This document shows positions 29,741-52,824 of a DNA stretch of 64,000 nucleotides, piece by piece. Both the position numbers and the translations under genes were made by a program. Each line of letters begins with the position of its first letter. The first letter of the stretch is position 1. The stretch is from Escherichia coli (GTDB lineage Bacteria; Pseudomonadota; Gammaproteobacteria; Enterobacterales; Enterobacteriaceae), in the NCBI RefSeq assembly GCF_016026235.1, contig NZ_CP065613.1; one strand, given 5' to 3'. Below the pieces are notes generated by a model, which was given only the letters and a program-made list of their open reading frames with translations, was not told where the DNA came from and did not search any database.

Positions 29741-29775
29741 GTCAACATATCCTGAATCAGACATACAATATCGCA

Positions 29776-31046: not shown

Positions 31047-31622
31047 CTACGGCAGTGCTGGCCATTCAATATCCTGTGCAGTTGACGTATCAACACGGTT
31101 CAGCAATACCCGATACTTTTTCCATGCTTCCAGCAACGAGATTTCTTCCTCCGTTGCAATTTCCAGATCTGCAGCATCCTGAAGCGGCGCAATATGCTCA
31201 CTGGCTACCTGCATCAGGTTGTTTTTTGTTTCTTCCGCCTCCCGGATCCGGAACAGTTTTTCTGCTTCCGTATCCTTCACCCAGGCTGTGCCGTTCCACT
31301 TCTGAAACTCCCCTTCCGGCGATAACCAGGTAACATTTTCCGGTAACGGACCGAGTTCAGAAATAAATAACGCGTCGCCGGAAGCCACGTCATAAACCGT
31401 TTTACCCCGATGATCTTCAACGAGATGCCACGATGACTCATCACTGTTGAAAACAGCCACGAAGCCAGCCGGAATATCTGGCGGTGCAATATCGGTACTG
31501 TTTGCTGGCAGACCTGTATGAGGCGGAATATATGCATCACCTTCACCAATAAATTCATTAGTTCCGGCCAGCAGATTATAAATTTTTATGGTCCGTGGTT
31601 GTTCACTCATTCTGAATGCCAT
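31047..31622 (-). CDS. tfaQ: Tail fiber assembly protein Tfa
   Basis: 191-aa ORF directly downstream of the stf C-terminal segment. Confidence 0.85.
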
Positions 31623-34600
31623 TATGCAAGCCTCACAATATAGTTAAATGCGATGTTTTTGACGGTGTTTTCCGCGTTACCAGCAGCGTTAACGGTGATG
31701 GTGTGTCCATGTGAACCAATCGCAACGGAGTGCGTATGAGCACCAATACCGACAGTATGCGCGTGTGCACCTGCAGATGCTGCTGTGCCGGACAGTGAGT
31801 GGCTATGATTACCATCTGTACTGGTATTAGCTAACCACCCCGTAGACATACCTACTGAGCCTTGTACACCCCAGGTATTTTGACCTGAGCTTGTATAACC
31901 ATATTGATAAGTATCTTTAAAAACACTGGGGTTAAATCGACGGCCATCTCTATGGCTGTGATTACCAGCTGCATTCGTGCTGCCACTTAAACTATGGGTA
32001 TGCGCACCAGTGTTATTCGTGGATTTAGTGCCGTAATCAAACGACGATGTGGTTTTCGTCCCCAAATCCGTACTGGATGCGCTGGCGCTGTGGGTATGCG
32101 ATTTAATGCCGTCCTATTCCTGAGACAATACGGCCCGACCACTGGTAGGTTTGCCCTTAATCGTCCAGCCACGCATATCAGGGATCACGCCTGACGGATA
32201 AGCCGCTGCAAGTTTCGGGTATGCAGATTTGTCAAAAGTCTGCCCCTGCATCAGGGCATAGCCAGACGGAACGGTATCTGATGGCCACGGGATTGGTGCA
32301 CCGACTGGATAAAACTCTGCAGGAGGATGAGCCGAGGTGTAAAGCTGCGCCCACGGCGACCAGTTTGCGTCGGTCGTATCCCGTCGTGAACGAATAAATG
32401 CCGGAGCATGAGCACCGCTTGTACCACTCCAGCCGATGAGTAACTCACCTTCGCCAACGGCTGTCATCCCTTTCAGGTGAATGATATTTCCATACGCTGT
32501 TGGATATCCGTTGTTATACACCTCGTATAACTCAAGACCTGTTGCCCCCTGCGTATTGTCTGTCAGCGCGGTTACCCGACCTTTTGAAGACAGATTAACT
32601 GATGATACTGCTGTTCCACCTGACGGTAACGCCCCGATCTCTGATGCCGTTGGCTTATTTCTGGAGTTATAGTCCCTTCGCCAGCCAGGTGAATAATCTG
32701 TTCCGTGATTAATATAGGTAAACTGGGCGTTAGTTGTTCCACCACCAGTGGAGGTGGTCGGTGTGGTAATGCGGATCGTCATCGCTGACTTTATCCCCAT
32801 TACTTCAATGACAGCTCCGGCGAGATGAATATTACCGCAGTCAGTATCAGTAATGATTTTATTATTGCCATAAGACCAGGAACCCTTGCACATCCAGTAG
32901 GGATGGTTAAATGCTCCCTGAGAATCCAGCCACTCGATAAACTGTGCAGTCGTCCAGTTTCCTGTTATTGTGCTTACTGACCCACCAAAGGCACGGCAGG
33001 CACCAATATTTTTCGTAAAGGTGTCTTTGCCAGGGATATCCGCACCGTTCTGATCTTTCTGCAGACGTTTCTCAGCATTGTCATAGGCTGTTTTTACTGC
33101 CTTTGGTGTCGCGGCAAGCGTTTCAGACGTGCTGTTGGTCGCGCTGCTTAGCTGGATTATCCCTTTCTGTGCTGTCGTTGCATCCTGTGCGGTGTATTTC
33201 CCGTTAGCCAGGTCATACGCGGCCTTAACGGCTTTTGGTGTTGCCGCCAGTGACTCGGAAGTGCTGTTAGTCGCACTACTGAGCTGTACTATCCCCTTTT
33301 TCGTCGTGCTCGCATCCTCAAGCGCCACAGCGGATGCAATATCCTCTGCCCGTTTTGCTGCTGTCTCGGCGCGCGTTGCTGCGGATTCTGCCGTACTCTT
33401 GCTCTGTGCTGCCGCCGTCGCACTGCCAGCAGCCTCTGTTGCCTTCGTGGATGCCGTCGTGGCGCTGCCCTTCGCTGCTGACGCTTGTCTGGTCGCCTCA
33501 TCTTTTGAAGCAGACGCCGATGAGGCCGATGACGCCGCCGAACTGGCGGACGATGCGGCAGCCGTTTTTGAGGATTCTGCGCTGGTTTCCGACGCTTTCG
33601 CGTTCGTTTCGGATGTCTTCGCTGCGGAAGCTGACCTCGCTGCTGCGCTGGCCTGTTCAGTGGCTTCGCCAGCCTTCGTTGTGGCTGTTGAAGCGGATGA
33701 TGCGGCGCTTTCTGCCGATTTTCCGGCGGCGATGGCACTGGCTGAGGCCTGCCCGGCACTTGTTGACGCGGCACTGGCAGACGACGCAGCCGCTGTTTTT
33801 GAGCCTGCCGCAGCTGAGGCGCTCTGTCCCGCTGCCGTCTCAGAAGACCTGGCGTTCGTCTCGGACGTTTTTGCCGCCTTCGCGGAATTTGCTGCCGCCG
33901 TTGCCGAGGAAGCTGCGCTACTGGCGCTCGAGGATGCGTTCGTTTCTGATGATTTTGCCGCCTCTTTTGAAGCCGACGCATCCTGGGCTGAGGTGGCAGC
34001 TTCTGACGCTTTCGTAGTCGCGGTGGATGCAGAAGTGGCTGCTGATTGTTGTGACGCTGCAGCATTCGTTTCTGACGTTTTCGCGGCACTGGCACTGGTA
34101 GCTGCCGCGCTTTTTGAGGACTCTGCAGCGGCAGCACTTTTTGATGCTTCAGTGGCCTTTGCTGATGCCGTTCCTGCGCTGGAAGACGCTGACTGAGCCG
34201 ACGACGCGGCCTGTCCGGCTGACGTGCTGGCTGCGCGTGCTAAGCCTGCAGCATCAGTTGCATGGGTTGCCGCCTCACGGGCTGATGTGCCGGCATCGCT
34301 GGCTGACTTCTTCGCGGCTGCTGTGTTCTGTGCCACCGCGGACGCGTTACGCGCCACCTCTTCCACCATCAGTTCAAAACGTCGCAGTGCCTCCGGACGG
34401 GCATCATCCTCCGTCATGGCACCGAGAAAATCATTCAGCGTACCGGGTTGAGAATCTTCATACACGGTGATGGTCCCGGCATGTGACGGCGGGAATCCTT
34501 CCACCAACAGAATAACGCTGTACTGACCGTACTCAACGTCCATGCTGTAACGCCCGGCTTCATCCGGATTTTCTGAGGCCAGCGTGTTCACCACCACCGC

Positions 34601-34693
34601 GGTGCTGTTACGTTTTGCTTTCAGCTGGATTGTGCAGTTCTGTACCGGTTTTCCTGTGCCGTCTTTCAGTACACCTGAAATCTTTACTGCCAT
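31622..34693 (-). pseudogene. stfQ: Side tail fiber Stf, interrupted by an in-frame amber codon at 32114-32116
   Basis: 873-aa ORF (lambda-Stf-like [26 protein letters not shown]... start at 34693) and a 147-aa ORF with His-rich tail-fiber repeats share one frame, separated only by TAG. Confidence 0.7.
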
Positions 34694-34756
34694 ATTCACC
34701 CCACAAAAAGCCCGCCTGAACCAGCGGGCTGTCATAACACTGTGTTACCTGGCTAA

Positions 34757-35356
34757 TCAGAACTTATAACCGACACCCACGATGAAACCGTCAGTGCGCC
34801 AGTCGCCACTGCCGGAACCTTCATAAGCAAGGTCAATGGCCACGGATTCGGTCGGGTTAAACTGCACGCCAGCTCCCCACGCCAGAGACGTGTTGCTGTG
34901 GCGACCGTCATCACTTCCGGTCAGCACGTCGTGCGTTTTCCCCTTGTTGTCAGTTACGCGGAGATAATCCCCGGAGAAAGTCGACACACGGCTGTAAGCC
35001 ATACCCGCCATCGCATACGCGCTGAACCATTCATTCACGCGCACAGACGGCCCCACCATCACGCTGAACCAGCGGTTACGCACGGAATCTTCATGCCAGC
35101 GGGTATCGCTGTAACGGGTAAGCTGGCGATTCTTGTCTCCTGCATAGCTGAATGACGTCACCAGCCCCAGTGTGTCCGTAAACTCATAACGGTATTTCAC
35201 GTTAATCCCGTTAAGATCATCGCTGCCGGGAACGTTCGTCGAGGCATGAAGATACCCCGCGCTCAGCGTGGACTGATGTTCAGATGCCCATGCAGGCGCA
35301 CCGGATACGGCCAGACAAATGGCTGCGGACAAAATGGCGGCATAAAGTTTACGCAT
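34757..35356 (-). CDS. lom: Lom-like outer-membrane protein (Ail/Lom/OmpX family)
   Basis: 199-aa ORF with signal peptide and beta-barrel pattern, ending ...VGVGYKF. Confidence 0.85.
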
Positions 35357-35380
35357 AATTACCTCTCGCTTTTCTGCAAT

Positions 35381-35404
35381 AAAAAAGGCACCATTTCTGG
35401 TGCC
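35381..35404 (-). terminator. Hairpin plus U-run on the minus strand between J and lom
   Basis: Minus strand reads GGCACCAGAAATGGTGCC followed by TTTTTT. Confidence 0.45.
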
Positions 35405-35425
35405 CTTATATGGGTTATAACAATT

Positions 35426-38838
<3,413 letters not shown>

Positions 38839-38895
38839 TCACGCTCCATAAACGACAAAACCGCCCGGAGGCGGTTTCACATAAAACGTTTTTCA

Positions 38896-39543
38896 TCAGC
38901 GACCAATCACCACAACCTGACCACCATCCCCTTCGTCTGCCGTGCGGATCTCCTGAGAGACCACCCGCGACCCCACGCGCATTTCACCGTACAGAACGGG
39001 CAGAACATTGCCCTGGGCAACCATGTTATCCAGTGAGGAGAAATAGGTGTTCTGTTTGCCGTTATCTGTACTTGCTGCCGTGGGCGTCCTGGCTTTCGGT
39101 GCCAGCATCTGCGCCACTCCGCCCAGGATCATACTGGCCCCTGCCGCATACATGCCCGATACAGCCGCGGCACCCAGCCAGCCCACAGGGTTCCACCATG
39201 CCACCGCAATCAGCGCCACCCCCAGCACCACCTGAAACACACTGCCACTTTTAGCTCCCGCCAGACGCGGCACGATGTGGATCACGGCACCATTTGCCAG
39301 CGGCTCATTAAGACGGGCAGACAATTCGGTTTCACCTGCATCACGCCCGGCAATGCGTACCTGGTACCAGCCGTCGCTCAGTTTCTGACGAAACGCCGGG
39401 ATCTGCATGGCCAGCGCCCGGATGGCTTCGGACCCCGTTTTCACTCGAAGGTCGATGCGGCGGCCAAATCGTTGTAAATCCCCGTAAAGGCAGATGCGTG
39501 CCATGCCCGGTGACGCCAGAGGGAGTGTGTGCGTCGCTGCCAT
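38896..39543 (-). CDS. Tail assembly protein I (lambda gpI-like)
   Basis: 215-aa ORF in lambda gene order. Confidence 0.85.
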   Translation of the reverse strand: MAATHTLPLASPGMARICLYGDLQRFGRRIDLRVKTGSEAIRALAMQIPAFRQKLSDGWYQVRIAGRDAGETELSARLNEPLANGAVIHIVPRLAGAKSGSVFQVVLGVALIAVAWWNPVGWLGAAAVSGMYAAGASMILGGVAQMLAPKARTPTAASTDNGKQNTYFSSLDNMVAQGNVLPVLYGEMRVGSRVVSQEIRTADEGDGGQVVVIGR

Positions 39544-40193
39544 TTGTCGGTGTACCTCTCTCGTTTGCTCAGTTGTTCAGGAATATGGTGCAGCAGCTCG
39601 CCGTCACCACAGTAAATGGCGGCATGATTCGGCACCGATGAACCAAAACAGCACAGCAGCACATCGCCCGGCTGCGCCGCTGACAACGGCACCTGATACA
39701 GCCCTGTGGCCTCCAGATTATCCAGATAGAGATTCTGACCGTTACGCCACCAGTCATCCTCGCGATGAAAATCCGGCATCTCAATCCCCGCCAGATGGTA
39801 AGCATCCCGGAACAGCGTGTAACAGTCCGTCACCCCGTGCTCAAAGCGCCGCCCGGAAAGATGTGGCACACAGCGGAACTTGTGAATCGCCCCCCGGCAA
39901 ACCAGCCACCACGGCAAATCACTCTGCACCTGCAGCCGCCGGTCGGTCTCACTCAGCCAGGGCAGACCACCGGGGTGGCTGTGGACCAGCGCCACAATCT
40001 CACCCTGCATCTCTGCCCGCAGCCAGTCCTCCGGCGACATCCGGAAATACTCCTCCGGCTCACCGGAGATATTCACGCAGGGAAAATATCTTTCCCCCTC
40101 CGGTGTTCTCACCACGAAGCCGCACGACTCCGCTGGCGCACATCGCCGGGCGTGCGCCAGAATCGCTGATTCTGTCTCTGTCATGGGATTCAC
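39441..40193 (-). CDS. Tail assembly protein K (lambda gpK-like, MPN/NlpC-P60 type); 3' end overlaps I
   Basis: 250-aa ORF with HSHPGG (JAMM-like) and Cys-His peptidase-type motifs. Confidence 0.8.
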   Translation of the reverse strand: MNPMTETESAILAHARRCAPAESCGFVVRTPEGERYFPCVNISGEPEEYFRMSPEDWLRAEMQGEIVALVHSHPGGLPWLSETDRRLQVQSDLPWWLVCRGAIHKFRCVPHLSGRRFEHGVTDCYTLFRDAYHLAGIEMPDFHREDDWWRNGQNLYLDNLEATGLYQVPLSAAQPGDVLLCCFGSSVPNHAAIYCGDGELLHHIPEQLSKRERYTDKWQRRTHSLWRHRAWHASAFTGIYNDLAAASTFE

Positions 40194-40888
40194 TGCGAAA
40201 GTTTGTTAATGGAAAGGAAGCCGCCAAAGTTGCCGACGTTATTGCGAAACTTACAGCCGCTCAGGCATTTGCTGCATTTATCCTTCGTGATATCGGAGGT
40301 CGGCTGGTCATATTCATCCGCGACCGCCGGACCGTGATAACCGCACTCATCACCGCGATAGGTCCAGGTGCAGGTATTAGCCAGCATGATGCGCCCCGGA
40401 AAAACAGCGCCGTCCGTTTCCGTCGGCGTGGACAGTACAAAAGAGGCACTCACCGCGCTCAGTTCGCTGCACTGCTCGATGCGCCAGCGGCTGATCACCT
40501 CCTGCTCCGGATCGGCGTCACTGTTTCCGTTGACGAAGTTCACCGCATCCAGAAAACGGGCGTAAACCTTACGCCGGACCACCGTTCCTCCGACCAGACT
40601 CTGCAGGTCTTCCGCCATCCCGGTGACCATGCCGTGCAGGTTAGAAACCGTCAGTGTCGGACGGGCAGCACTGCCTTTGCCGTTCAGTTCAAATCCCGTC
40701 CCCTGAATGGGATACGCCTGATACTGTCGCCTCTGCCAGGTGACCGGCTCACCTTTATCGTTCTGCTCATTACAGAAAAAATAACGCTCACCACCGACCT
40801 CTGTCAGATCGATTTCCCAGAGCTCCACCCGGACTGACTGCTCCGCACGGGTGCATTCATTCAGTGTTTCCTGCCGGATATCCTGCAT
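40190..40888 (-). CDS. Minor tail protein L (lambda gpL-like)
   Basis: 232-aa ORF, same length as lambda L, in order. Confidence 0.85.
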   Translation of the reverse strand: MQDIRQETLNECTRAEQSVRVELWEIDLTEVGGERYFFCNEQNDKGEPVTWQRRQYQAYPIQGTGFELNGKGSAARPTLTVSNLHGMVTGMAEDLQSLVGGTVVRRKVYARFLDAVNFVNGNSDADPEQEVISRWRIEQCSELSAVSASFVLSTPTETDGAVFPGRIMLANTCTWTYRGDECGYHGPAVADEYDQPTSDITKDKCSKCLSGCKFRNNVGNFGGFLSINKLSQ

Positions 40889-41217
40889 CAGTTCACCACC
40901 TGTTCAAAATCGGCCGTTACAGTCACCCATAACGCCCCCACGCTTGCCGACCATTTACGACAAACCACCCTGATCGGTTTCCAGTCATAAGGTGGCGTCC
41001 ACTGAAATGCGCGGACGCCACCGTGCCGTTCCAGAAAGGCTTTTAAAGATGGGTGTTCACATTTACGAACACGTATCGTCACGCTGTAAATCGACAACTG
41101 GTTATTCAGTCCCGCCGCACGACGCTGTTCATAACCATCGCCCAGCTTCACTGTCACCACTTTCGGCTCTGATACCACATTCATATCCGGGCGCACTTTC
41201 CAGTGAAACGTCTCCAT
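40888..41217 (-). CDS. Minor tail protein M (lambda gpM-like)
   Basis: 109-aa ORF, same length as lambda M. Confidence 0.85.
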   Translation of the reverse strand: METFHWKVRPDMNVVSEPKVVTVKLGDGYEQRRAAGLNNQLSIYSVTIRVRKCEHPSLKAFLERHGGVRAFQWTPPYDWKPIRVVCRKWSASVGALWVTVTADFEQVVN

Positions 41218-44200
41218 TACCGATATGCTCCACTTAACCGACCACCATCACGGGCCTGCTGTTGCATAAAGTCCGCTGCCGCTTTTTTCCCAAGGTCATA
41301 AACCACCTTCAGGGCAGCCGGACCTATCTGCCCGTTCGTGCCATCGTTATTGATCTCGATGTTGTACTGCGGGGCAAACATCGCCATACCTGAACCACCA
41401 ATATCCGCCACAACCCCCAGCTTACCGTCAGCACCACGACGCAGTGGCAGAATGGCTTCAGGTCCAGCTTCCCCCATCACACCCGCGCCTTTTGCAAAAG
41501 CAAAAAACGTCGGACGGTTAACCACCGTGCCACTGTAACGACTCAAATCAGCAGACTGATAAATCCCCCCATTGGCATTCAGGGAAAGGCTGCTGAGATC
41601 AAATCCCAGTACACTGCCAATCCCTTTTATCGATTTCATCATGGTTGCCTGCGCCAGGATTTTCGCCATATCTGACAGCACCGAAGAGGTGAAGGATTTG
41701 AAGTTGAGTTTGCCGGTAGTGACAAAAGTTGCCAGGCCATTTCCCATGTTGCTGAAGGCTGATGAGAACACCTGTTCTGCTGTTCCTGCCGTATTGTCTG
41801 CATCCACGGTAAAATCCTGAAATGCACGCAGGACTCCGTTTTTCCAGTTACCCTGCACAACTTCAAGCTGTTGCCAGTAACGGCGATTCTCATTCAGTTG
41901 TCGGTTCAGGCTCTCCGTCAGCGCCTGCTCGGCCTTTCTGTAGTCATCCGTGTTATATGTCCCTTTCTGCTCACTATCCCGCCTCAACTGCTCCAGCTGT
42001 TGCTGGTATTTCTGGCGAAGACTCAGTTGTACCTGATATCGCTGCCGCTGCTGATCACCCATACCCACCGTGGCGATATCCAGGTCATGTTGCTGACGCT
42101 GAGCGCGCTCTTCTTCAGCCAGTTGACTGGTCAGCTGAATTGTTTTTTTCTTCAGATCGTTGAGTGCCGTTTGTTTCTGAAGCTCCTGCTGTTTTACATC
42201 CAGCAGCGTCAGTGCCTGAATCAGCTCATTCTTACGGGCCAGCACACTCTTTTCATCTGCCGTCAGCTTTTTCCCGTCCAGGTCGCTGATGCGCTGCTGC
42301 AGGGCCAGAAGCTGTTTATGCGCTTCAGTCATCCTTTCAGTGGCAATGCCTGCTGACTGTCTTGCAGCAGCAATCTGTCCTTCCACCTGTGCCTGTTGCT
42401 GACTGTACTGCAGCAATAACCGGGTGGCCTCATCATTACGGGTTTCGCGTGTTTTTTTCTTACCGGATGCCAGGGCTTTCTCGTAACGTTCATTTTCACG
42501 TTGTATCGCCGCATCCCTGACAGCCTGGTCGGCGTACTGCATGGCATTAATACGCGCAATTTCACGCTGATGTCGTGCTGCTTCCGTTTCATTCATCCGG
42601 TTCAGTGCAGCATTTTCAGCATTACGTCGTTTCTGTTGCTCCTGATAATTCCGCTCTGCCTGCTCTTTTGCATCCTGCAAATCCTTCTGGCGTTTTTTCT
42701 CCTGAAGATCGTTAAGACGCTGCTGATCGTATTCAACCTGAGAAGATGATGCCGTCCAGGGGAGTCTTTTCGCCCGCGACACTTTCTCCTGTAAAGCGGT
42801 AATCTGTTCATCCAGCGAGTCTTCACGACCAATATTCATGGCCGCATCCCAGAAACGACTCCACAAATCAGACAGATACTTCAGCGTACTGCCAAGCGCA
42901 TTGAGGTTATTATCAATATCCGCAGTACGCCGACCGGTTTCCTCTGCCAGTGCAGACATGGCTATCCGTGCAGCATCACTGGACCGTCCCTGATCCCCAA
43001 GGACACGTATCTGCTCAAGCTGAGTGGCAGTAAGAAAATGCAGCTCATTGTCCAGAGCCTTCGCGGCATTTACAGGATCATCCTTCAGCCGCTTAAACTG
43101 ATTTATGGTATCGCTGACCGACTGGCCAACCGATCGCTCCATCTGTGCGGCAGCTCTCGCCACCATACCGATATCGTTTCCACGAAATGCACCACTCCCC
43201 ACCACCTGCGCCAACGCACCGGCTGCAGCATGTTGCGTGATACCATTCCCGGAAATAGCACGACTGAGCGTCCACAGCTGCCCGGCAGTGACTCCGGCAT
43301 AATGCCCCGTCAGCGACAACTGGCGGTTAAATTCTTCCCCCTCCTTCTGACCGTCATACCAGGCTTTACCCAGACCATAGACGGCCGCGGCAATACCGCC
43401 AATAACCCCGCCAAGCATCATGCCTTTCGGTGACATCAGTGCGCCTGTCCATCCGGCACGGTTAGCCAGCGTTATCCCGGATCCCCTCAGCGCCCCTAAA
43501 TTGCCGCGGGCCAGTTCACCTATCAGAACGCCTATCTCCTGGCGGGCTGCTGCACTTTTCAGACCCAGCGAATGCGTGGCTTTTCCTGCCTGCTCCATTT
43601 TGCGGATATACACTTCTGCAGCACTGCTTACCCCCAGCTGGGCTGCCCTGGCGCGAAGCAACTCAGAAGATGAAAGATTCTGGCGGGTTGCCTGCTCTTT
43701 AAGCTGACGGATAAACGCCACTTTCTGTCGGGTAGCCTCTTCCTCAGCCTGTGTAAGAACACGGGTTTTCGCAGTAACCTCAGAAATCAGCGCCAGATAA
43801 TCCTGCTGACCAATCCCGCCACTGTTTCTGGCCTGTCGGATCTGCTGCTGAATACGCTGTAATTCCTGCAGCCCCGCACTGGCCTGTTTCACACTGTCAA
43901 TCTGACGATAAAACGCAGCAGCCGCTTTATCCTGAGCCTCCGCCAGAGCCATGGCCTGCGCCTGTTCCTCGCGCATTTTCTGGCTCAGCGCCTCCATGCG
44001 CTGGCGGGTTTTCTCCACCTCGCGGGCCATGCGTTCATGAGCCTGTGCGTTCTTCTCCACCGTCTGCGCATGGACGGATGCGGCTGTTGCAGCCGAAGAA
44101 GCCGCCTGCGTTGTCTGCCGGGCGGCCTGAGTCTGACGCTCCATAAAACGCTGCATACGGGCAGAAGACCGTTCTGCATCGCTGGCTGCACCATTCAGAA

Positions 44201-44282
44201 GGTTTTTGATACGGGGAATTTCATTTTTAAACTCTGCCGCATCAATCCCCAAATCAATGACCAGGTTGGCTATCTGGTCCAT
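41217..44282 (-). CDS. Tail tape measure protein H (lambda gpH-like), start taken at MDQIANLVIDLGIDAAEF
   Basis: ORF 41217-44312; coiled-coil-rich about 1020-aa protein with gpH-like N- and C-termini (...NNDGTNGQIGPAALK...). Confidence 0.85.
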   Translation of the reverse strand: MDQIANLVIDLGIDAAEFKNEIPRIKNLLNGAASDAERSSARMQRFMERQTQAARQTTQAASSAATAASVHAQTVEKNAQAHERMAREVEKTRQRMEALSQKMREEQAQAMALAEAQDKAAAAFYRQIDSVKQASAGLQELQRIQQQIRQARNSGGIGQQDYLALISEVTAKTRVLTQAEEEATRQKVAFIRQLKEQATRQNLSSSELLRARAAQLGVSSAAEVYIRKMEQAGKATHSLGLKSAAARQEIGVLIGELARGNLGALRGSGITLANRAGWTGALMSPKGMMLGGVIGGIAAAVYGLGKAWYDGQKEGEEFNRQLSLTGHYAGVTAGQLWTLSRAISGNGITQHAAAGALAQVVGSGAFRGNDIGMVARAAAQMERSVGQSVSDTINQFKRLKDDPVNAAKALDNELHFLTATQLEQIRVLGDQGRSSDAARIAMSALAEETGRRTADIDNNLNALGSTLKYLSDLWSRFWDAAMNIGREDSLDEQITALQEKVSRAKRLPWTASSSQVEYDQQRLNDLQEKKRQKDLQDAKEQAERNYQEQQKRRNAENAALNRMNETEAARHQREIARINAMQYADQAVRDAAIQRENERYEKALASGKKKTRETRNDEATRLLLQYSQQQAQVEGQIAAARQSAGIATERMTEAHKQLLALQQRISDLDGKKLTADEKSVLARKNELIQALTLLDVKQQELQKQTALNDLKKKTIQLTSQLAEEERAQRQQHDLDIATVGMGDQQRQRYQVQLSLRQKYQQQLEQLRRDSEQKGTYNTDDYRKAEQALTESLNRQLNENRRYWQQLEVVQGNWKNGVLRAFQDFTVDADNTAGTAEQVFSSAFSNMGNGLATFVTTGKLNFKSFTSSVLSDMAKILAQATMMKSIKGIGSVLGFDLSSLSLNANGGIYQSADLSRYSGTVVNRPTFFAFAKGAGVMGEAGPEAILPLRRGADGKLGVVADIGGSGMAMFAPQYNIEINNDGTNGQIGPAALKVVYDLGKKAAADFMQQQARDGGRLSGAYR

Positions 44283-44583
44283 AACGCACACCTCCGGAAA
44301 TACCTTCCCCAAGATGCATCAGTTCTTCGTCCGTTCGCTCCGGTATCCCGTTCTCTTCCGGTAAAAGGCTGAAATCAGCCACCGCAGCATCACTGCTGCC
44401 GGACACCATTCTCACGATCAATGCCTTCAGCGAGGCAAACTGCGCATCCATCCACACATCACTGAAGCTCTGCATCCGGAAATAATCGCCCCACTCACCA
44501 AGCTCAGTGGCCGACATTTCCGACAGCATCCGCCGCCAGTCTGCCCGCCTGAACTCCCGGGCAAGCCGCATGACAAACTGCAT
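44254..44583 (-). CDS. gpT frame of the tail assembly chaperone pair; expected to be made only as a G-T fusion by -1 frameshifting
   Basis: 109-codon ORF in the -1 frame relative to G, overlapping the G 3' end and the H 5' end. Confidence 0.55.
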   Translation of the reverse strand: MQFVMRLAREFRRADWRRMLSEMSATELGEWGDYFRMQSFSDVWMDAQFASLKALIVRMVSGSSDAAVADFSLLPEENGIPERTDEELMHLGEGISGGVRYGPDSQPGH

Positions 44584-44591
44584 TTCCCGCG

Positions 44592-44978
44592 TCAGGACTT
44601 TTCCGGCGTCAGCACCTCATGCTCCAAATCCCCGGCATTCTCAATGGCTCCCATACCGCTCAGCGACAGAACCATCTCCGCCCCCGCTCCCAGGGCATCA
44701 TACGACCATGTTGTAATAACGGATGCGCAAAGCGTCTCAACATCCTGAGACTGTTCCGCATTCCACAGTGAGCGGGAAACCAGCCAGGCATTGATATCCA
44801 TCCCCATCCGTAGAAAAGCAATCTGTCGTTCAGCCTCCGGCAGTTCTCCCTCTTCGGCATCAAACTTTGCCGTTCGCTGCTGAACAAACGCCAGATATTC
44901 AATTCTCTGCAGCCCGGACAGCTCACTGAGCACCACGGACTGCTTTTCATAATTAAACGTGCCCTGTTTCAGAAACAT
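44592..44978 (-). CDS. Tail assembly chaperone G (lambda gpG-like)
   Basis: ORF 44592-44996; start at MFLKQGTFNYEKQSVVLSELSGLQRIEYLA, similar to the lambda G N-terminus. Confidence 0.8.
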   Translation of the reverse strand: MFLKQGTFNYEKQSVVLSELSGLQRIEYLAFVQQRTAKFDAEEGELPEAERQIAFLRMGMDINAWLVSRSLWNAEQSQDVETLCASVITTWSYDALGAGAEMVLSLSGMGAIENAGDLEHEVLTPEKS

Positions 44979-45037
44979 CATGTTCTCCGGATGCAAAAAG
45001 CCCCGGATAACCGGGGCAAATGATGAGTATCGTCCTG

Positions 45038-45669
45038 TTAACCTGCGGCGCTGACAGCCACCGTAGCCACTGCCACAAAATCGCCGTCAGAAGTCATGCC
45101 CACAATGCTGACACTGCCCTGCTTCACGCCTTTCACCGTGGCAGTCTGTGGATCTGTCGAATGCACACTGATCGCTTTGTCACTGGCTCCGTCAGGTTTT
45201 ACTGTAAAGGTCAGCGTGGTGGTTGCTCCCGCTTTGACACTGGCAGATGCCGGTGCCATCGTCAGCCCGGTAACGCCCACGATTTCAGTGCCTTCCTCTG
45301 CCAGATACGGAAAACATCAACAGTACCGTTGGGATATTTGATACGAAAAGCGCAGACTTCACCGGAGTCGAACAACTGAACCAGTTTTTTCTGCCCGCTG
45401 TCCCCCGGACGCCAGGCCAGCGTCGCCGAAGTATCACCGACTGATTTCTGCCCCTGGGTTGTCGTTTTCCAGTCTGCATCTTCATCATCGAGATAAGTGT
45501 CATCTTCTGCATCAGCGGTCATTTCGCCAGGTTGCAGATCCTTCACCATCGCAAGACGCAGCCAGTCAGTGTCCGATAAAGGGTTCGCAAACGCATCGCC
45601 CTTGCCGGTATACATCCAGAACGTCGTTCCCGCACCTTTCGTTTTTGCCAGTGGATTTGGTGTGGTCAT
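45038..45669 (-). pseudogene. Major tail protein V, disrupted by an out-of-frame internal deletion
   Basis: N-terminal part ([18 protein letters not shown]...VDVFR, then 14 out-of-frame codons and stop at 45262) and C-terminal Ig-like part (...[25 protein letters not shown]...) lie in different frames; about 30 codons present in lambda V are absent. Confidence 0.65.
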
Positions 45670-45679
45670 TACCACCTCC

Positions 45680-46081
45680 TTAATTCGTGTACGTGATCTG
45701 GTACGTGATTTCCGCCATCGCCCAGGTGGCCATCTCATTATCACGTTGATAGTTAAAACCGAGTGGGATCAGGGTGTCGATGAGTCCGGAAAGTGCTGGT
45801 ACATCATTCAGGGCCGGGAAAATGGTGCTCTCCATCCACATATCCAGCTCTGAATCCGGTGCCTGTGCCCGGATGAAGACAGCAATATGCAGAACAGCCT
45901 GCCAGTCATCTTCATCCGTCATTTTTCCGGTGTACTGAGCATCACTCAGCCACACCGCCACGGCAGGCAGTTCCTGCGCATCAACAAATGCCGGAAGCCC
46001 GTCAAAAAACGTGGCGCTGTCTCCACACTGTTCCCGAAGGCGTGCCAGTACGACCTGGCGGATTTGTGTATGTCGGTTCAT
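45680..46081 (-). CDS. Minor tail protein U (lambda gpU-like)
   Basis: ORF 45680-46093; start MNRHTQIR... at 46081, overlapping the Z stop (ATGA). Confidence 0.85.
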
Positions 46082-46656
46082 CGGGTCAGCCATAACCTCA
46101 GTTGTTGTTTCAGTGCATACCCCAGCTGTTTCGGCATTTCCGCAGCAATGATGCGGTCGCGGGCATCTTCAAATGTCTGTGTCAGCGGTCCGGACAGCGG
46201 GATTTTCACCACATCAATGGGGTAACGATTTTTGCCATCAATACGCCGCATCACATGCCAGCGACCATTCGCCAGTTGCTGAATAAACGCATCCCGGAAA
46301 AGATATTTACCCACCTTCAGCACACTGCCACGGTACTGCAGTTTTCCACCACGCCGGGCCAGTCTGACCCGGGCTGTCCCCAGCTTAATGGCAGGCAGAT
46401 TGCCCCGGTTAACGCGGATCCTGGCCGTCATTTTTCCTGACGGACTGGCTTTAAACACCCGGACACGCTGACGTACCAGTTTCAGGGGGATCCCTTTCAC
46501 CTGGTTATCTCCCGCAACGGTATTCCCGGCAACCTGCCGGGTGGCAACCGAGACCGCTTTCTGTGCCACACGGTTTATCGCCCATGCGCTGGCCTGTGGC
46601 ACCATACGGGTATCAAGGCTGTTCAGATTGCGGATGGCATTCTCAAGCCCCTTCAT
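46078..46656 (-). CDS. Tail completion protein Z (lambda gpZ-like)
   Basis: 192-aa ORF, same length as lambda Z. Confidence 0.85.
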   Translation of the reverse strand: MKGLENAIRNLNSLDTRMVPQASAWAINRVAQKAVSVATRQVAGNTVAGDNQVKGIPLKLVRQRVRVFKASPSGKMTARIRVNRGNLPAIKLGTARVRLARRGGKLQYRGSVLKVGKYLFRDAFIQQLANGRWHVMRRIDGKNRYPIDVVKIPLSGPLTQTFEDARDRIIAAEMPKQLGYALKQQLRLWLTR

Positions 46657-46667
46657 CCCACACCTCT

Positions 46668-46943
46668 TTACTCAATAAAGATCATTGGCTTACCGTTAAA
46701 GCGTTCATGCCGTGTGACCGTCCATTGTTGTCCGTCATAAACAACGCGATCACCGCGCCGTGGGCGGTATCCCGAAGAAAACACCACCAGAGAGACCGCA
46801 GGTCCGGACAGAGCATTCAGCTCTGCCAGTGTTTCTCCCGGGATCACAGTCATATCGACATCATTAATCGAGGCTGTCTTTCCCATCTTTCTGACCGTGA
46901 TAGCATCCATACGCGCTGCCAGCCGGGAAAAGGGATCAGACAT
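46668..46943 (-). CDS. Putative head-tail joining / adaptor protein (FII-position gene)
   Basis: 91-aa ORF immediately upstream of Z; assignment by position only. Confidence 0.5.
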   Translation of the reverse strand: MSDPFSRLAARMDAITVRKMGKTASINDVDMTVIPGETLAELNALSGPAVSLVVFSSGYRPRRGDRVVYDGQQWTVTRHERFNGKPMIFIE

Positions 46944-47259
46944 TGAGTTTTACCGGCACTTCTTCTGCACTGGTTCCGGCATCTGCCCAGACAACCCCGA
47001 CCAGCGGATCAGAGCCGCTGTTAGTCAGCTGAATTTTTCCGGACTTCAGATAAACCTTCTTACCCGTTTTCATGTCATCCGTTTTCAGCTTAGGCAGCAT
47101 AAACACACCTTCGGTCATGCCGTCGCCTGTTTCACCCTGTGGAATATCGGTCAGCGCCACCGCAAAAACATCGCCCACCTGCACCAGATCTCCGCTGCTG
47201 ATGGCTGCACTGGCAACAATCGCCACCGTTTTTCCTTCTTCTACAAAATTCTTTGCCAT
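46936..47259 (-). CDS. Hypothetical phage head-associated protein
   Basis: ORF 46936-47304; probable start MAKNFVEEGKTVAIVA at 47259; sits between the capsid gene and the head-tail joining gene. Confidence 0.45.
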   Translation of the reverse strand: MAKNFVEEGKTVAIVASAAISSGDLVQVGDVFAVALTDIPQGETGDGMTEGVFMLPKLKTDDMKTGKKVYLKSGKIQLTNSGSDPLVGVVWADAGTSAEEVPVKLNV

Positions 47260-47345
47260 AACTGTCTCCGCACAGCCCCGTTCAGGGGCTGATTTCAGGT
47301 ACAAAAAAAGCCCTTACGGGCCATCAGAGATGTTGTCTGCGACGT

Positions 47346-49057
47346 TTACGCCGTACATTTCACCAGACCGCGGTGATCAACTGGCGCGACACCGGCGTCA
47401 ATACGCACTTTCGTTGTCACGCCATCCACACTGAAGCCCTCCATCTGATCAATATATGGCGTATCCACACCGTTGAGATAAGCCACTTCAATCGTATCGG
47501 AGCCTTTTGACGCAGCCAAGTAGAAGGTGGTCTGGCTGTTATCATCAAGACGAGGCTCTGCAATAACGGTCGCAAAATCTTTCACCGGGTTAATAATACC
47601 GGCGTTAATGTCAGCCCCCTTGACACTTGAGGAGCGAATGACCTGGTTAGCAACAGACTCCATCGCCGTCGGTACCAGTACGAACGCAGGACGAATATTC
47701 AGATGACGCTCCCCCTCTTTCTGAACGCGCATCAACTGGCGGGCTTTATCCAGCGATGCCACGTCCATTGCAGCGCTCTCCAGTACGTTTGCATGTTTCG
47801 CTTTATCGAACAGACTTACATTATCTGTGGAGATTTTCGGGTTAGACGTCAGAATGGCATAAACCAGATCGGCAATAGTGGATTTCGCCGCACGGCCCAG
47901 TTTCATCGGGACATCGGTCAGCATATTCAGATCATCATTGATAATGGCCTGACGGGTGATACTGAACAGCTCGCCATAGGTCGCCAGTGCAATAGTGGCC
48001 TGTTTATCTCCGGTGGTGACGTATTTATATTCCGCCCCTTCACGCACCTGACGCAGAGCACTGAAGCCCCCCATACCCACACGATGGGCAATTTTAAAAT
48101 CAGACAACTGACCTTTCCGCGTCCACTGTTCATAGGTTTCAGGGGCATCTTCCCAGCCCTGCAGAATGGCTTTGTTCGCAACATCCAGCAGAATATTACC
48201 GAAGTCAGACGTACTGTGTGTGAACGCCGCACCGACCATCTGCATCGGGTTATAACCGGAAACCCCAATACCCCGTTCAGTCAGTGACATACGGGCATAT
48301 TCACGCAGGGTCATCCCGTTGTAGACATTATCACGTTCGGTTTTTTCAAATCCGGCACGCGCCATCAGCGCCTGGCGGATCCCGTCCCCCACAAAATTAC
48401 CGTTACCGGCATAAATATGAGCCGGGGTATTTTTATTGGATGGCGTGGACTCGCGCCCCATCTCGTTCAACAGCTTTTCACGGGCCTGCTCCAGCGAACA
48501 TTCAGGATCGGCAAGACACTGAGCCTGCAGCGTCTGATAACGCCCGCCAAACATGGCAAACAGATCATTAATACCGTTTACACGCGCTTTTTGCTCTGCC
48601 AGTACCTGCGCACGGATGCTGTTTTCATCCACCACGGGTGCTGCTGCCTGCACTGGCGTCCGGGAGGCTTCAGATTCATTATCCTGTACGCGTGGAGCAC
48701 TGTTGCGTGGCGGAGTAATCATGTTTCGAATGGATTCCGGCATCTTTTTAAATTCCTCTGTACGTTTTGACTGAATACATGCCATTGCCTTAACGGCTGG
48801 CGTTACCTGATCAGCAAATCCATGTGCCAGACATTCGGCACCGGACATCCAGGTCTCATCCGCCAGCATGGCAGCAATTTCATCGGTGGTTTTCCCGGTT
48901 TTCTGTGCATAAGCGGGTAACAGAACCGCCTCAACTTTATCGAGCAGGTCGGCATAGGTGCGCATGTCCTCCGCATCACCGCCCGTAAAGCCAAATGGTT
49001 TATGAATCATCATGAAGGTGTTTTCCGGCATAATGACCGGGTTTCCTACCATCGCAA
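47346..49057 (-). CDS. Prohead protease - major capsid protein fusion (HK97-like), 5'-truncated by the IS600-like insertion
   Basis: 575-aa ORF whose first codons (TTG at 49071-49073) lie inside the IS terminal repeat; N-terminal part ClpP-like, C-terminal about 330 aa capsid-like. Confidence 0.65.
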
Positions 49058-49100
49058 TGAGGTGTACTGGCAATAGCGGACACTACCATTTGTTCTTTTT

Positions 49101-49919
49101 TTAAGCAGCCATCTGATGATATTTTTCCCTGAAGGCTGCCGGGGAGATATTCCCCAGACGAGAGTGACGACGCTGACGATTGTAGAAAATCTCAATGTAT
49201 TCCCGTATTACTGAGATGGCTTCATCCCGGTTATTAAAACGATAGTGGCTCAGGCTCTCATTTTTCAGCGTTCCCCAGAAGCTTTCCATCGGAGCGTTGT
49301 CGTAACAGTTACCTTTACGCGACATTGATGTTTTCAGACCAAACTGCTCCTGTATGACCCGGTAATCGTATGCGCAGTACTGTGAACCTCGATCAGAGTG
49401 GTGGATTAGCCCGGCAGGTGGGCGCTGGCTCCTGAGCGCCATAAACAGGGCTTTACCTGTCAGCTCTTTTGTCATGCGCTCTCCCATGGCGTAGCCGACA
49501 ATTTCGCACGTATAAACATCTTTGATGCCAGCGAGGTACAACCATCCCTCCTGTGTGGCAACATACGTCAGGTCCGCCACCCAGACCTGATTTGGTGCTG
49601 TAGGAGCGAACGTCTGGTTCAGCAGATTTGGCGCAACTGGCAGATTGTGGTTCGGGTTCGTAGTCGCTCTGAACTTGCGTTTCTGCTTACAGCGTAGCCT
49701 TAGCTCCTTACGAAGACGTGCCAGTCGGTCACGACCAACGATGATGCCATTCTCTGCCAGCTCCGTCTGGAGCCGCCGGGTTCCATATGTTTCGCGAGTG
49801 CGGATATGTGCCACCTTAATCTCCAGTTTTAGCCGCTCATCACTTTGTTTTCTGTCTGAGGGTTCATGCTGTACCCAGTTGTAATAACCGCTCCTGGATA
49901 CACCAAATACCTGACACAT
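49101..49919 (-). CDS. IS3-family transposase OrfB (DDE integrase domain); normally expressed as an OrfAB fusion
   Basis: 272-aa ORF with ...HHSDRGSQY... and ...GNCYDNAPMESFW... motifs. Confidence 0.85.
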   Translation of the reverse strand: MCQVFGVSRSGYYNWVQHEPSDRKQSDERLKLEIKVAHIRTRETYGTRRLQTELAENGIIVGRDRLARLRKELRLRCKQKRKFRATTNPNHNLPVAPNLLNQTFAPTAPNQVWVADLTYVATQEGWLYLAGIKDVYTCEIVGYAMGERMTKELTGKALFMALRSQRPPAGLIHHSDRGSQYCAYDYRVIQEQFGLKTSMSRKGNCYDNAPMESFWGTLKNESLSHYRFNNRDEAISVIREYIEIFYNRQRRHSRLGNISPAAFREKYHQMAA

Positions 49920-49954
49920 CGCTTCAATGGGAAATTGTTGTCGCCATTGTTCGA

Positions 49955-50257
49955 TTAACGCGTATTTTTCAGCGACTCCTGTGCAAAATACGCTGTTGCT
50001 TTTTTTAATATATCTCGCTCAAGGCGAGCTTCATTTAACGCCTTACGCAGTTGCAGAATTTCAGATTCCAGTTCAGCCACCGTGCGGGAGCCAGGAGTAC
50101 CGAGCCCTTTTCTGGCGGCGGTAACCCATTGTCCTAAAGTGCCTTCAGGAAGGGATAATCGGGAAGCGCCTTCACTGATCGAAAGTTGATTTTCAAGAAC
50201 CGTTCTGACAGCTTCGGCTTTGAACTCTTTAGAGTAACGTTGGGTTTTTCTGCTCAT
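49955..50257 (-). CDS. IS3-family transposase OrfA (HTH, leucine zipper)
   Basis: 100-aa ORF MSRKTQRYSKEFKAEAVR...; ends ...LKKATAYFAQESLKNTR with the A7G run (plus 49998-50005) at the LKK codons. Confidence 0.85.
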   Translation of the reverse strand: MSRKTQRYSKEFKAEAVRTVLENQLSISEGASRLSLPEGTLGQWVTAARKGLGTPGSRTVAELESEILQLRKALNEARLERDILKKATAYFAQESLKNTR

Positions 50258-50439
50258 TATTAGCTCCTTCTGATGCCATTCTATTTCAGGAAGGAGTGTC
50301 CGTTAAACTCAGGCTACCTCAGTTTTCCCTGACTCTTACGCCTTTATAAACAAACCAGATACGTAATTTCCCTCCATGGCTTTCCACGCCTGTCGGATAT
50401 TTCATTTCAATTTCTCTCATTAGTTAGTGTGGCTTTTAG

Positions 50440-50691
50440 TCAAGTAAGATGACGTCTTGGTCTTGCTGATGCCTGGCGCTCAATCCAGCGATCAATTTCT
50501 TCCAGGTTGTAAAAGCATGGACTGTTATCCCATGGCATACCGTCATGAGCGACATGCTTATATTCCCTTCCTTCCATAAACGATTTTTCCCGGGCCTTTT
50601 TTAACGTACCTTTTTTTATTCCTTTCAGCGCAATTAACTGCTCTTCGGATACCCATTTGCCGGGAGAGACAATCATGATTACTTCGCTCAT
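50440..50691 (-). CDS. Putative prophage excisionase (Xis-like)
   Basis: 83-aa ORF with a GREY motif as in lambda Xis; adjacent to the recombination-module remnant. Confidence 0.55.
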   Translation of the reverse strand: MSEVIMIVSPGKWVSEEQLIALKGIKKGTLKKAREKSFMEGREYKHVAHDGMPWDNSPCFYNLEEIDRWIERQASARPRRHLT

Positions 50692-50763
50692 CGATTTCTT
50701 TATCTCTTACATCAGACGAGCGCCGGTTGCAGAATACCAGTCACAACCGGCGACAGTTGAACA

Positions 50764-50904
50764 TTAAGAATCAGCCTGACTCGGGATCAGTTTTTGCCAG
50801 ATAACTGAAACGTATTTTGCCTGGTAACGGGCGTCATCAAGTGCATTATGGCGCTCACCTTCGAATGGAATAGCCGTTCTGGCATCGAAGTCTATGGCTT
50901 TCCC
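50764..50904 (-). pseudogene. 3'-terminal remnant (about 46 codons) of a DEDDh-type 3'-5' exonuclease gene, truncated by the IS10-like element
   Basis: Minus-strand frame open from the IS end to TAA at 50764-50766 reads ...PIDFDARTAIPFEGERHNALDDARYQAKYVSVIWQKLIPSQADS*; H-x-A-L-x-D-A resembles the Exo III motif. Confidence 0.4.
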
Positions 50905-52198
50905 CTGAGGAATCCCCAGAAAACAAGACAGGCATAGTGAGATGTGATCTAATTGATTGTGCTAACAATTTCAAGGAGATCACCACTATGCCTGCACGTT
51001 CATTATGCCAAAATTTCCTTAACAACATACTGGCCCCTTTGCATCTTTACCGTCAAAAATCACTGATTGACGCAACTAATGCTGTAATAAATGGCGCTTC
51101 CCTCACACTTACCAGTATCGGGCGTCATTTAACCGGTACGGCATCAGTTAAAAACAAAATAAAGCGGGTGGATCGACTGTTGGGGAATCGACATTTGCAA
51201 AATGAGGTTTCCACCATTTTTCAGCGAATTACCCAAAAGATTACGCGGGGAATGTCTCGTGTTGTGATACTCATTGACTGGAGTGCTTATCATGCCTCTC
51301 GTTTTCAGCTTTTGCGGGCAAGCCTGGCATGTGACGGGCGTTCTTTACCGTTGATGAGTTGTGTCGTTCCATCATCACAGACAGCGAATGCAGATGTACA
51401 TGAGCGTTTTCTGGAATCGCTTGCTGAGTGCTTTTCCCCCGGGACTGATGTCATTGTTATTACAGATGCCGGTTTTCAGGGGCGATGGTTCCAACAGCTC
51501 CGCTCCCGTGGCTGGACCTATATTTGCCGGGTACTGGGCAATCATTATTACAATGTTGGTAATGGCTGGGAAAAGGTGTCGGACTCAGGCACAAAAGCAT
51601 CAACGACAGCAATTTATTTAGGTGAAGGCCTGCTGGGTCGAGATAAAAATGCACAACATGAAGGGCATTTTTATCTTTATAAAAGTAAGCCTAAAGGTCG
51701 TAGATTTAAACGCTCGAAGGAAAGAGCAACCAGACCATCGGTGACGGCTAAAGCTCGTACTGCCGGGAAATCACCATGGTTTATTTTCACAAACAGTACT
51801 GAGTTCTCGCCAAAACAGGTAATGAAATTATACAGCCGTAGAATGCAAATTGAGCAAAATTTCAGGGATGAAAAAAATCCTCGCTGGGGATTTGGACTAC
51901 GGTTTGGTGCCAGTCATTCATCCGGGCGGGTCACGGTATTGAGTCTGATCGCAACATTAGCCAGTATCATTATGTGGTTAAGCGGTTTCAGCCTGGAAAA
52001 CAAAGGGATACATCATAAATATCAGGCAAATACAGTGAAGCACAGGCGAGTCATCTCGTTATTAAAACTGGCGGAGAATGTGATTCGACATTCTCCACTC
52101 ATACTAAACACACTGTCACTTGACGCAGGGCTGAAAGTTCTACAGCAACGGTATACCAATATGATAATGGTTTACTAAATTTTCTGGGGATCCCTCAG
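50905..52198 (+). mobile_element. IS4-family (IS10-like) insertion sequence with 18-bp terminal inverted repeats CTGAGG(A/G)ATCCCCAGAAA
   Basis: Left end 50905-50922 CTGAGGAATCCCCAGAAA; right end 52181-52198 reverse-complements to CTGAGGGATCCCCAGAAA (17/18); single transposase ORF. Confidence 0.75.
50988..52178 (+). CDS. IS4-family DDE transposase (IS10-like); start at MPARSL preceded by AAGGAG
   Basis: ORF 50937-52178; YREK signature (Y-x2-R-x3-E-x6-K in YSRRMQIEQNFRDEK); segments resembling the IS10 transposase as recalled (IKRVDRLLGNRHL, ITDAGF, YQANTV). Confidence 0.8.
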   Translation: MPARSLCQNFLNNILAPLHLYRQKSLIDATNAVINGASLTLTSIGRHLTGTASVKNKIKRVDRLLGNRHLQNEVSTIFQRITQKITRGMSRVVILIDWSAYHASRFQLLRASLACDGRSLPLMSCVVPSSQTANADVHERFLESLAECFSPGTDVIVITDAGFQGRWFQQLRSRGWTYICRVLGNHYYNVGNGWEKVSDSGTKASTTAIYLGEGLLGRDKNAQHEGHFYLYKSKPKGRRFKRSKERATRPSVTAKARTAGKSPWFIFTNSTEFSPKQVMKLYSRRMQIEQNFRDEKNPRWGFGLRFGASHSSGRVTVLSLIATLASIIMWLSGFSLENKGIHHKYQANTVKHRRVISLLKLAENVIRHSPLILNTLSLDAGLKVLQQRYTNMIMVY

Positions 52199-52824
52199 CA
52201 GTCAGCCCCGCTCTCTTTCGCTTTTTCCAGTCGTTCATCAATGCGATCGGCAACAATCACATTTTTAACGTTATAGACGCCTTTTAATACCTGAACGATC
52301 GTCAGGCCGATTGGACCGGCACCGTAAACCAGAACGGTATCATTTTCAGTCGGTTGACCATGGCCGGTTACGTTAGCCGCAATGGTAAAAGGTTCGATCA
52401 TCACCGCATATTGATCGGCCACTGCTTCAGGAATTTTCCACGCATTTTTTGCCGGAACCACGGCATATTCACTGAAACCACCGTCAGCGTGCACACCTAA
52501 TACAGCCAGTGTCGTACAAACGTTCGGTTTACCTATAGAGCACGGATAGCAATGCCCACAGCTGACCACCGGATCGACAGCAACACGTTCACCGACTCTG
52601 GCGCTTTCCACACCTTCACCCACCGCATCAATGACGCCAAAGAATTCATGTCCAATGACGCGCGGATATTTCGCAAAAGGATTATGCCCACGATAAATAT
52701 GGCTATCTGAACCACAAATTCCGGCAAGTTTCACTTTTACTCGTACTTCACCCGCTGACGGGGTGGGTATTTCACGTTCGACAATCGCCAGTTGATTCGG
52801 TTTTTCAATTAATATGCTTTTCAT
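52195..52824 (-). pseudogene. rspB: Starvation-sensing zinc-dependent dehydrogenase RspB, 3'-truncated at the IS10-like junction (about 208 of about 339 codons)
   Basis: ORF 52195-52848; N-terminus MKSILIEKPNQLAIVEREIPTPSAGEVRVKV and GHE/Cys zinc-ADH motifs present; reading frame runs into the IS repeat and stops. Confidence 0.75.

Follow-up and report, generated by a model that had tools for sequence, protein, structure and literature searches.

The question raised by this locus is how an excisionase gene (xis) and an exonuclease remnant (exo') of a lambdoid prophage came to share a strand with the late genes of the capsid-to-tfa block, given that in lambda-type prophages exo-xis-int runs opposite to these genes. 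In the stretch of Escherichia coli DNA analysed here (64,000 nucleotides, hereafter the window), both indeed lie on the minus strand, and the length of 46 aa previously given for the exonuclease stub was also right. The original prediction offered two explanations, either an inversion or a composite of two prophage remnants. Here, we examined the junctions of this region, its intact relatives and the sister genomes that carry parts of the same arrangement.

Organization of the prophage remnant between ydfJ and rspB

The window is a segment of the E. coli chromosome with the gene order of K-12 (ydfI-ydfJ' ... rspB'-rspA-ynfA-ynfB-speG-ynfC-ynfD-ynfEFGH), and the remnant of a lambdoid prophage is located between ydfJ' and rspB'. 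The relevant features, with the evidence for each of them in parentheses, are:

29023..49057, minus strand: late block of an mEp460/Qin-type lambdoid prophage in ydfJ, the left boundary being approximate and set at the end of the ydfJ' ORF (ORFs, phage identity, gene order)
47346..49057, minus strand: capsid gene (ClpP-like prohead protease/major capsid fusion), 5'-truncated (Pfam, breakpoint mapping)
49058..50321, minus strand: IS600, IS3 family (identity, inverted repeats, Pfam)
50322..50405, minus strand: int', the first 28 codons of an integrase (alignment to the N-terminus of the TA8571 integrase)
50440..50691, minus strand: xis, intact, 83 aa (PF06806; identity to WP_000005552.1)
50764..50904, minus strand: exo', the last 46 codons and stop of an 823-aa exonuclease (PF16473; alignment to the full-length exonuclease)
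50905..52198, plus strand: ISEc60, IS4 family, IS10-like (identity to annotated copies, inverted repeats, DDE_Tnp_1)
52199..52824, minus strand: rspB', codons 1-208 (alignment to TA8571 rspB)

The late block includes ydfK, pin, tfa, stf, lom, J-I-K-L-M, the tape-measure gene, G/T, V (split), U, Z, head-completion genes and the 5'-truncated capsid gene, in the same order as in phage mEp460_ev081 and in the prophage of strain TA8571. Positions 44600-49057 are 97-99% identical to phages phi458, Ayreon, mEp460, cdtI and mEp460_ev081. The capsid gene, which matches Phage_capsid_4 (6.6e-55) and CLP_protease (7.7e-15), is cut by IS600 247 nt into the 1,959-nt gene of mEp460_ev081 (at about position 4600 of the mEp460_ev081 locus), and the truncated product has 561 aa. 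The major tail protein gene (V-like; 45038-45744, minus strand) is split into 135-aa and 80-aa products, also in sister assemblies, compared with 247 aa in intact relatives, and represents further decay of the late block. In the J or tail-tip gene (~36029-36033, minus strand), the window has four G and the sister assembly GCA_900449985.1 five, so that J is split into ORFs of 948 and 171 aa in the window but encodes 1,136 aa in GCA_900449985.1. The discrepancy reflects either a sequencing difference in homopolymer length or a true frameshift, and it implies that the window is not literally the GCA_900449985.1 record.

The xis product matched Pfam family PF06806 (DUF1233, putative excisionase) over profile positions 1-69 of 70 (E = 1.6e-31; 108.1 bits, cutoff 22) and has the same sequence as WP_000005552.1, the annotated excisionase of strain TA8571. 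Judged by its sequence, xis is a member of this family, but the xis-int module is broken: the gene is followed not directly by a complete cognate tyrosine integrase gene, as in its relatives, but by 28 int codons and then IS600. The translation of these codons (MKYPTGVESHGGKLRIWFVYKGVRVREN) aligned to the N-terminus of the 426-aa tyrosine integrase of TA8571 and stops at the IS600 terminus, with a TGA stop directly after. The int stub is unannotated and had been overlooked when the piece was described as joined to the capsid gene by an IS, a description that otherwise holds for IS600.

The exonuclease remnant differs from the full-length TA8571 protein by one substitution. The complete 823-aa exonuclease contains YdfE_N, YdfE_C and Rv2179c-like domains and spans positions 2-177 of PF16473 (Rv2179c-like 3'-5' exoribonuclease, DEDDh/DnaQ-type fold), whereas the 46 aa of exo', including the HNALDD motif, match positions 144-177 of 177 (E = 3.4e-9). 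The affinity to DnaQ-like exonucleases suspected earlier was thus recovered by a profile search. Considering that its catalytic domain is incomplete with respect to the Exo I, II and III motifs and that it lacks a start codon, exo' is a remnant rather than a gene. The lack of a start codon also accounts for its absence from the ORF track, which had been noticed before. On its other side, exo' adjoins ISEc60, which in turn truncates rspB.

Orientation of the int-xis-exo module in intact relatives

The opposite orientation expected of lambda-type prophages was seen in three complete phage genomes, mEp460_ev081, HannyBb and Tritos. Within each of these records, the match of the xis piece to the window (99.3-99.5% identity) is on the plus strand, whereas that of the head-tail block (97-98% identity) is on the minus strand. 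As annotated, mEp460_ev081 has a lambda-like layout in which the genes from terminase through portal, capsid, tail and stf to tfa occupy the plus strand and int-xis-exo the minus strand. Chromosomal prophages could be compared relative to rspB: at 11 independent loci at the ydfJ/rspB site, exo-xis-int is convergent with rspB, whereas the piece in the window is co-directional with it. These loci are TA8571, GCA_901482675.2 and nine others, taken from ten places shown to carry the exact exonuclease allele; the tenth had no rspB alignment. Since int'-xis-exo' is opposite in the relatives, the 583-bp piece of the window is inverted.

Qin of E. coli K-12 and the mEp460-type phages (mEp460, mEp460_ev081, cdtI, Ayreon and phi458) have a common attachment site in ydfJ next to rspB, and share with the window the int-xis-exo module (98.8-99.5% identity), the head-tail block (97-99%) and the pin/tfa/stf right end. 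Unlike these phages, the window has an inverted 583-bp int'-xis-exo' piece of which both edges are IS ends, and lacks ~27 kb of early, lysis and packaging genes as well as most of int and attL. The canonical lambda order, in which int-xis-exo is opposite to the late genes and int lies beside attL, is found in the relatives and not in the window, where attL is absent.

Another explanation would be that the head genes of this phage lineage are naturally preceded by an xis in the same orientation. No support for such an architecture was found, as neither the three phages nor the 11 chromosomal prophages show it and the phage genomes carrying both modules (97-99.5% identity) have the lambda order on opposite strands. 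In the window, moreover, the truncation points of the capsid, int and exo genes coincide exactly with IS ends. The chance that the arrangement is a natural one is close to nil.

The exact arrangement of the window was not found among 5,426 complete E. coli genomes of RefSeq, where the best single place covered at most 43% of window positions 48600-52900. O121 and O26 genomes had been considered as carriers of the window junctions but were rejected, because IS600 is located elsewhere there, either in the interval separating xis from exo or at a point ~250 bp deeper in int.

Insertions of ISEc60 and IS600

ISEc60 is 1,294 bp long (transposase, 50988..52178), with its IRL adjoining exo' and its IRR adjoining rspB'. 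It is 100% identical over 1,294 bp to annotated copies, including that of EIEC strain CFSAN029787, its inverted repeats start with CTGAGG(A/G)ATCCCCAGAAAA, and its transposase matches DDE_Tnp_1 (2e-20). The element is also present on Shigella dysenteriae plasmids; mentions of ISEc60 found in the literature were incidental only. Five independent copies have target duplications of 10 bp (GGGTTTCCCC, GGGGTAGCCC, GGGCTACCCC, GGGATTTACC and GGGCTGACTG) with a GGG-N4-CCC-like palindromic preference, and the exo site (TGGCTTTCCC) fits the same pattern. This preference is reminiscent of the target of IS186, GGGG(N6/7)CCCC (PMC5009759). The flanks of the window copy do not match each other (exo on one side, rspB on the other), as expected after an inversion.

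IS600 is 1,264 bp long (orfA, 49955..50257; orfB, 49101..49919). The window copy is 99.6-99.7% identical to annotated IS600 copies (the threshold for assignment was at least 95%), has inverted repeats starting with TGAGGT, and matches HTH_Tnp_1 in orfA and rve in orfB. Duplications of 3 bp, TTG and GTT, were found at the parental insertions, and the two flanks of the window copy differ, as expected of a recombinant copy. Hereafter, the insertions in rspB and exo are called ISEc60a and ISEc60b, and those in the capsid gene and int IS600a and IS600b. One copy of each target duplication is present in the window: positions 49055-49057 (CAA; TTG on the coding strand) for IS600a, 50322-50324 (GTT) for IS600b, 50895-50904 (TGGCTTTCCC) for ISEc60b and 52199-52208 (CAGTCAGCCC) for ISEc60a.

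Simple insertions at both outer junctions were found in sister genomes. An exact look-up of the 209-aa RspB' product identified, besides GCA_900449985.1, the genome GCA_901482675.2, in which a simple ISEc60 insertion with a 10-bp duplication (GGGCTGACTG) interrupts rspB at the site seen in the window and is followed by the 3' part of rspB, ynfP and full int, xis and exo in canonical orientation. The window differs from this genome at one position in 584 bp of the piece and at two in 5,099 bp of the flanks. Similarly, an exact look-up of the tape-measure protein identified GCA_014155105.1 and GCA_031665325.1, in both of which a simple IS600 insertion, flanked by a TTG duplication, occupies the position cut in the window capsid gene and is followed by the 5' end of that gene and by the portal and terminase genes. 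The portal protein is very common (10,789 blocks), and a look-up with it, meant to extend the GCA_031665325.1 locus upstream, led to unrelated genomes. Given these simple insertions, the outer junctions, capsid'|IS600 and ISEc60|rspB', are ordinary ancestral insertions and the inner ones, IS600|int' and exo'|ISEc60, are derived. The assemblies with junctions of this set are GCA_900449985.1, GCA_014155105.1, GCA_031665325.1, GCA_901482675.2, GCA_0019073xx/0019075xx and GCA_000805835.1.

A separate insertion was observed in GCA_901482675.2, where an IS1 occupies the region immediately upstream of exo and separates it from the DUF1482/dicB genes (locus 16822-17519); it is another independent IS insertion in the early-left region.

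An intermediate with an inverted block

An insertion of a second ISEc60 into exo, if accompanied by a 10-bp duplication, predicts a 799-aa protein that consists of exo residues 1-781 and a read-through into the ISEc60 IRR, codon 781 spanning the junction. This exo::ISEc60 fusion was found by exact look-up in GCA_014155105.1, on the contig that also holds IS600a in the capsid gene, and in GCA_001907535.1. The order in GCA_014155105.1 is dicB, exo-N' | ISEc60(-) | rspB-3', ynfP, int-C | IS600 | int', xis, exo' | ISEc60(+) | rspB', rspA. On the left, ISEc60 lies between the exo duplication (GGGAAAGCCA, the counterpart of the copy beside exo' in the window) and the rspB duplication (GGGCTGACTG), and on the right between their reverse complements; thus, the duplications are swapped, which implies that the block between the two inverted ISEc60 copies was inverted. 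This block, exo'-xis-int-attL-ynfP-rspB-3', comprises 3,637 bp, or 2,370 bp after subtraction of IS600b and its 3-bp duplication. Within it, IS600b is a simple insertion in int with a GTT duplication. According to strand bookkeeping, IS600a and IS600b of GCA_014155105.1 are direct repeats, 27,035 bp apart by contig coordinates; these come from two loci, 8.4 kb from each other, that were viewed in this contig.

Window positions 49058-54032 are 100% identical to locus 13426-18400 of this genome (4,975 bp, no mismatches, all inner junctions), and no differences were found over 13.7 kb of the late region. These intermediates show that the non-canonical orientation in the window is secondary. Of the two explanations first proposed, inversion is supported, since the whole block is inverted between the ISEc60 copies of GCA_014155105.1, whereas the idea of a composite is not, everything belonging to one prophage at one locus.

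In the composite scenario, int'-xis-exo' would derive from a second prophage and would have been moved beside the late block by an IS-mediated translocation or a large inversion. A donor is conceivable, as the int-xis-exo module was matched in 4,639 of the 5,426 E. coli genomes at a median of two places per genome. However, the piece that is 100% identical in GCA_014155105.1, with both IS junctions, is still joined there to int, attL, ynfP and the 3' part of rspB, namely to the native left end at the same locus. In addition, the exact exonuclease allele lies at ydfJ/rspB in every place shown, and the divergence of the piece and of its flanks from GCA_901482675.2 is that expected for orthologous DNA. 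We consider a second prophage to be an extremely improbable source.

An assembly artefact, by which 583 bp of unique sequence were misplaced or misoriented between repeated IS copies, was judged to be just as implausible. It is true that the piece is short and flanked by multi-copy repeats, and a homopolymer-length difference elsewhere between the window and UGFA01000002.1 points to some noise between assemblies. However, the orientation is fixed by four unique junction sequences that involve two IS types with defined ends, the window and GCA_900449985.1 agree over 20,630 bp without a mismatch, and the inner junctions of GCA_014155105.1 are identical.

Downstream of J/lom, GCA_014155105.1 diverges from the window (capsid locus from 18940 on), its tail-fibre end adjoining an ABC-3 type transporter gene and not pin-ydfK-ydfJ. 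Given this further rearrangement, GCA_014155105.1 is a sister and not a literal ancestor, so that the order of events discussed below is derived from the junctions that these genomes have in common rather than from a dated phylogeny.

Probable stepwise IS-IS recombination

It is very probable that the 583-bp int'-xis-exo' piece is the early-left relic of a single mEp460/Qin-type prophage and was reversed by two successive IS-IS recombinations. In the orientation of the window, the canonical order can be divided into five segments: A, the late genes (minus strand); B, portal, terminase, lysis, Q, replication and immunity genes and most of exo; C, exo'-xis-int' (plus strand); D, the rest of int, attL, ynfP and the 3' part of rspB; and E, the 5' part of rspB and rspA. 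First, ISEc60a would have inserted into rspB at the D|E boundary, generating a 10-bp duplication. Second, ISEc60b would have inserted in inverted orientation into exo at B|C, again with a 10-bp duplication, and recombination between the two copies would have inverted C and D (~2.4 kb). Third, IS600a would have inserted into the capsid gene at A|B (TTG) and IS600b into codon 28 of int at C|D (GTT), the two being direct repeats ~27 kb apart after the inversion. Fourth, homologous recombination between IS600a and IS600b would have removed B, ISEc60b and D, which amount to 27,035 bp by the coordinates of GCA_014155105.1. The predicted outcome, A-[IS600]-C(inverted)-[ISEc60]-E, is the arrangement of the window.

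The junctions, the target duplications and stages 1 to 3 can be read directly in extant genomes, as can the identity of the window to the intermediate. The timing of the IS600 insertions relative to the inversion, as placed in this scheme, is what we infer, and the exchanges were probably events of RecA-type homologous recombination rather than driven by transposase.

The window copy of IS600 is identical to IS600b of GCA_014155105.1 and differs from IS600a (of GCA_014155105.1 and GCA_031665325.1) at IS positions 1033 and 1187 only, both of which lie within the int-proximal 232 bp and carry the IS600b alleles in the window. This pattern suggests that the window IS600 is a recombinant of the capsid and int copies with a crossover inside the element, although the hybrid signal consists of two SNPs and might be mimicked by gene conversion from another IS600 copy. 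The inversion step is without a recombinant signature because the two ISEc60 copies of GCA_014155105.1 are identical; the single difference between the ISEc60 of the window and that of GCA_901482675.2 (window position 51992) was uninformative in this regard.

Transposase might instead have produced one or both steps, either by an intramolecular replicative-type transposition, which yields an inversion together with a duplicated IS, or by an IS-adjacent deletion. Such a transposition would give the same swapped duplications as those of GCA_014155105.1 and would agree with the identity of its ISEc60 copies, and the inner junctions lie at good target sites, TGGCTTTCCC in exo being GGG-N4-CCC-like and the int site resembling the IS600 terminal repeat. 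On the other hand, IS600b is already present before the deletion as an ordinary insertion with its own 3-bp duplication in GCA_014155105.1, and the IS600b alleles at the int-proximal end of the window copy are expected of a crossover within the IS. IS4/IS10-type elements move by cut-and-paste transposition and elements of the IS3 family by a copy-out/paste-in mechanism; neither is known to make adjacent inversions normally, which we also counted against transposase action. This route therefore appears unlikely, yet it retains a small share of our belief, and a transposase-mediated inversion would leave the overall picture unchanged.

With regard to the int target, the sequence beside the IS600b insertion point (TCAGGAACC(T/C)CCAGGTT; TA8571 locus ~19995-20015, GCA_014155105.1 locus 13401-13425) resembles the terminal repeat of IS600 (TCAGGCTACCTCA). 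This likeness could be the result of an IR-like target choice or a coincidence.

Homologous recombination between IS copies, the preferred explanation for both steps, is well documented in E. coli, as is local hopping, and both have been quantified in mutation-accumulation lines (PMC5009759). Very high rates of IS-driven rearrangement have been reported for IS-rich Shigella (PMC8072062). The events proposed here resemble those known from E. coli and Shigella, with an inversion between inverted ISEc60 copies and a deletion between direct IS600 copies that left one recombinant copy; as in local hopping, the second IS copies landed near the first ones. The case is the same in kind as known IS-IS recombination, and what is unusual is that three successive stages have survived in sequenced sister genomes.

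Fate of the prophage and of xis

The remaining prophage lacks int, attL, the immunity, regulatory, replication, Q, lysis, terminase and portal genes and the capsid 5' end, and would be expected, from its gene content, neither to excise nor to form particles. In this respect it resembles the "grounded" or defective prophages described in a review (PMC6379469), having lost int, attL and its regulatory, lysis and packaging functions and retaining a structural-gene block that is unable to excise. Such decay is ordinary for a prophage; events of this type are known from IS-rich E. coli and are a textbook outcome of IS expansion. The modest value of the locus is that of a cleanly resolved, stepwise case in which a lambdoid prophage of an IS-rich E. 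coli lineage lost its mobility and was reduced to a remnant, three successive stages being available in public assemblies and one intermediate having been predicted from the model and then found. The analysis explains an apparent oddity rather than reporting a discovery, and it matters little for biology at large. For annotators, it is a caution that, in an IS-rich genome, genes can owe their orientation to secondary events, and that short unannotated int and exo stubs flank xis.

The intact state of xis can be explained by its position between the breakpoints and by the recent date of the events, the piece having no substitutions relative to GCA_014155105.1. It is probably a mere passenger without an evident promoter, now cut off from the pL-type transcription unit that lay upstream. 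A consensus promoter scan predicted no promoter-like site upstream of xis and, by analogy with IS10 pOUT, none reading from the left end of ISEc60 into exo'-xis; the sole match was inside IS600, and the total number of matches was lower than the shuffle expectation. It is conceivable, by the same analogy, that the orphan xis has been kept and is expressed, for example by read-out from the ISEc60 end, and that it might have an effect in trans, as a regulator or directionality factor, on other prophages of the same IS-rich genome that have related integrases, but we regard this as very unlikely.

At the other end of the remnant, rspB, encoding a starvation-sensing Zn-dependent oxidoreductase, is inactivated by ISEc60. 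The exact truncated 209-aa RspB' product was found in ~20 contigs labelled E. coli, which implies that the ISEc60::rspB insertion marks a small E. coli lineage.
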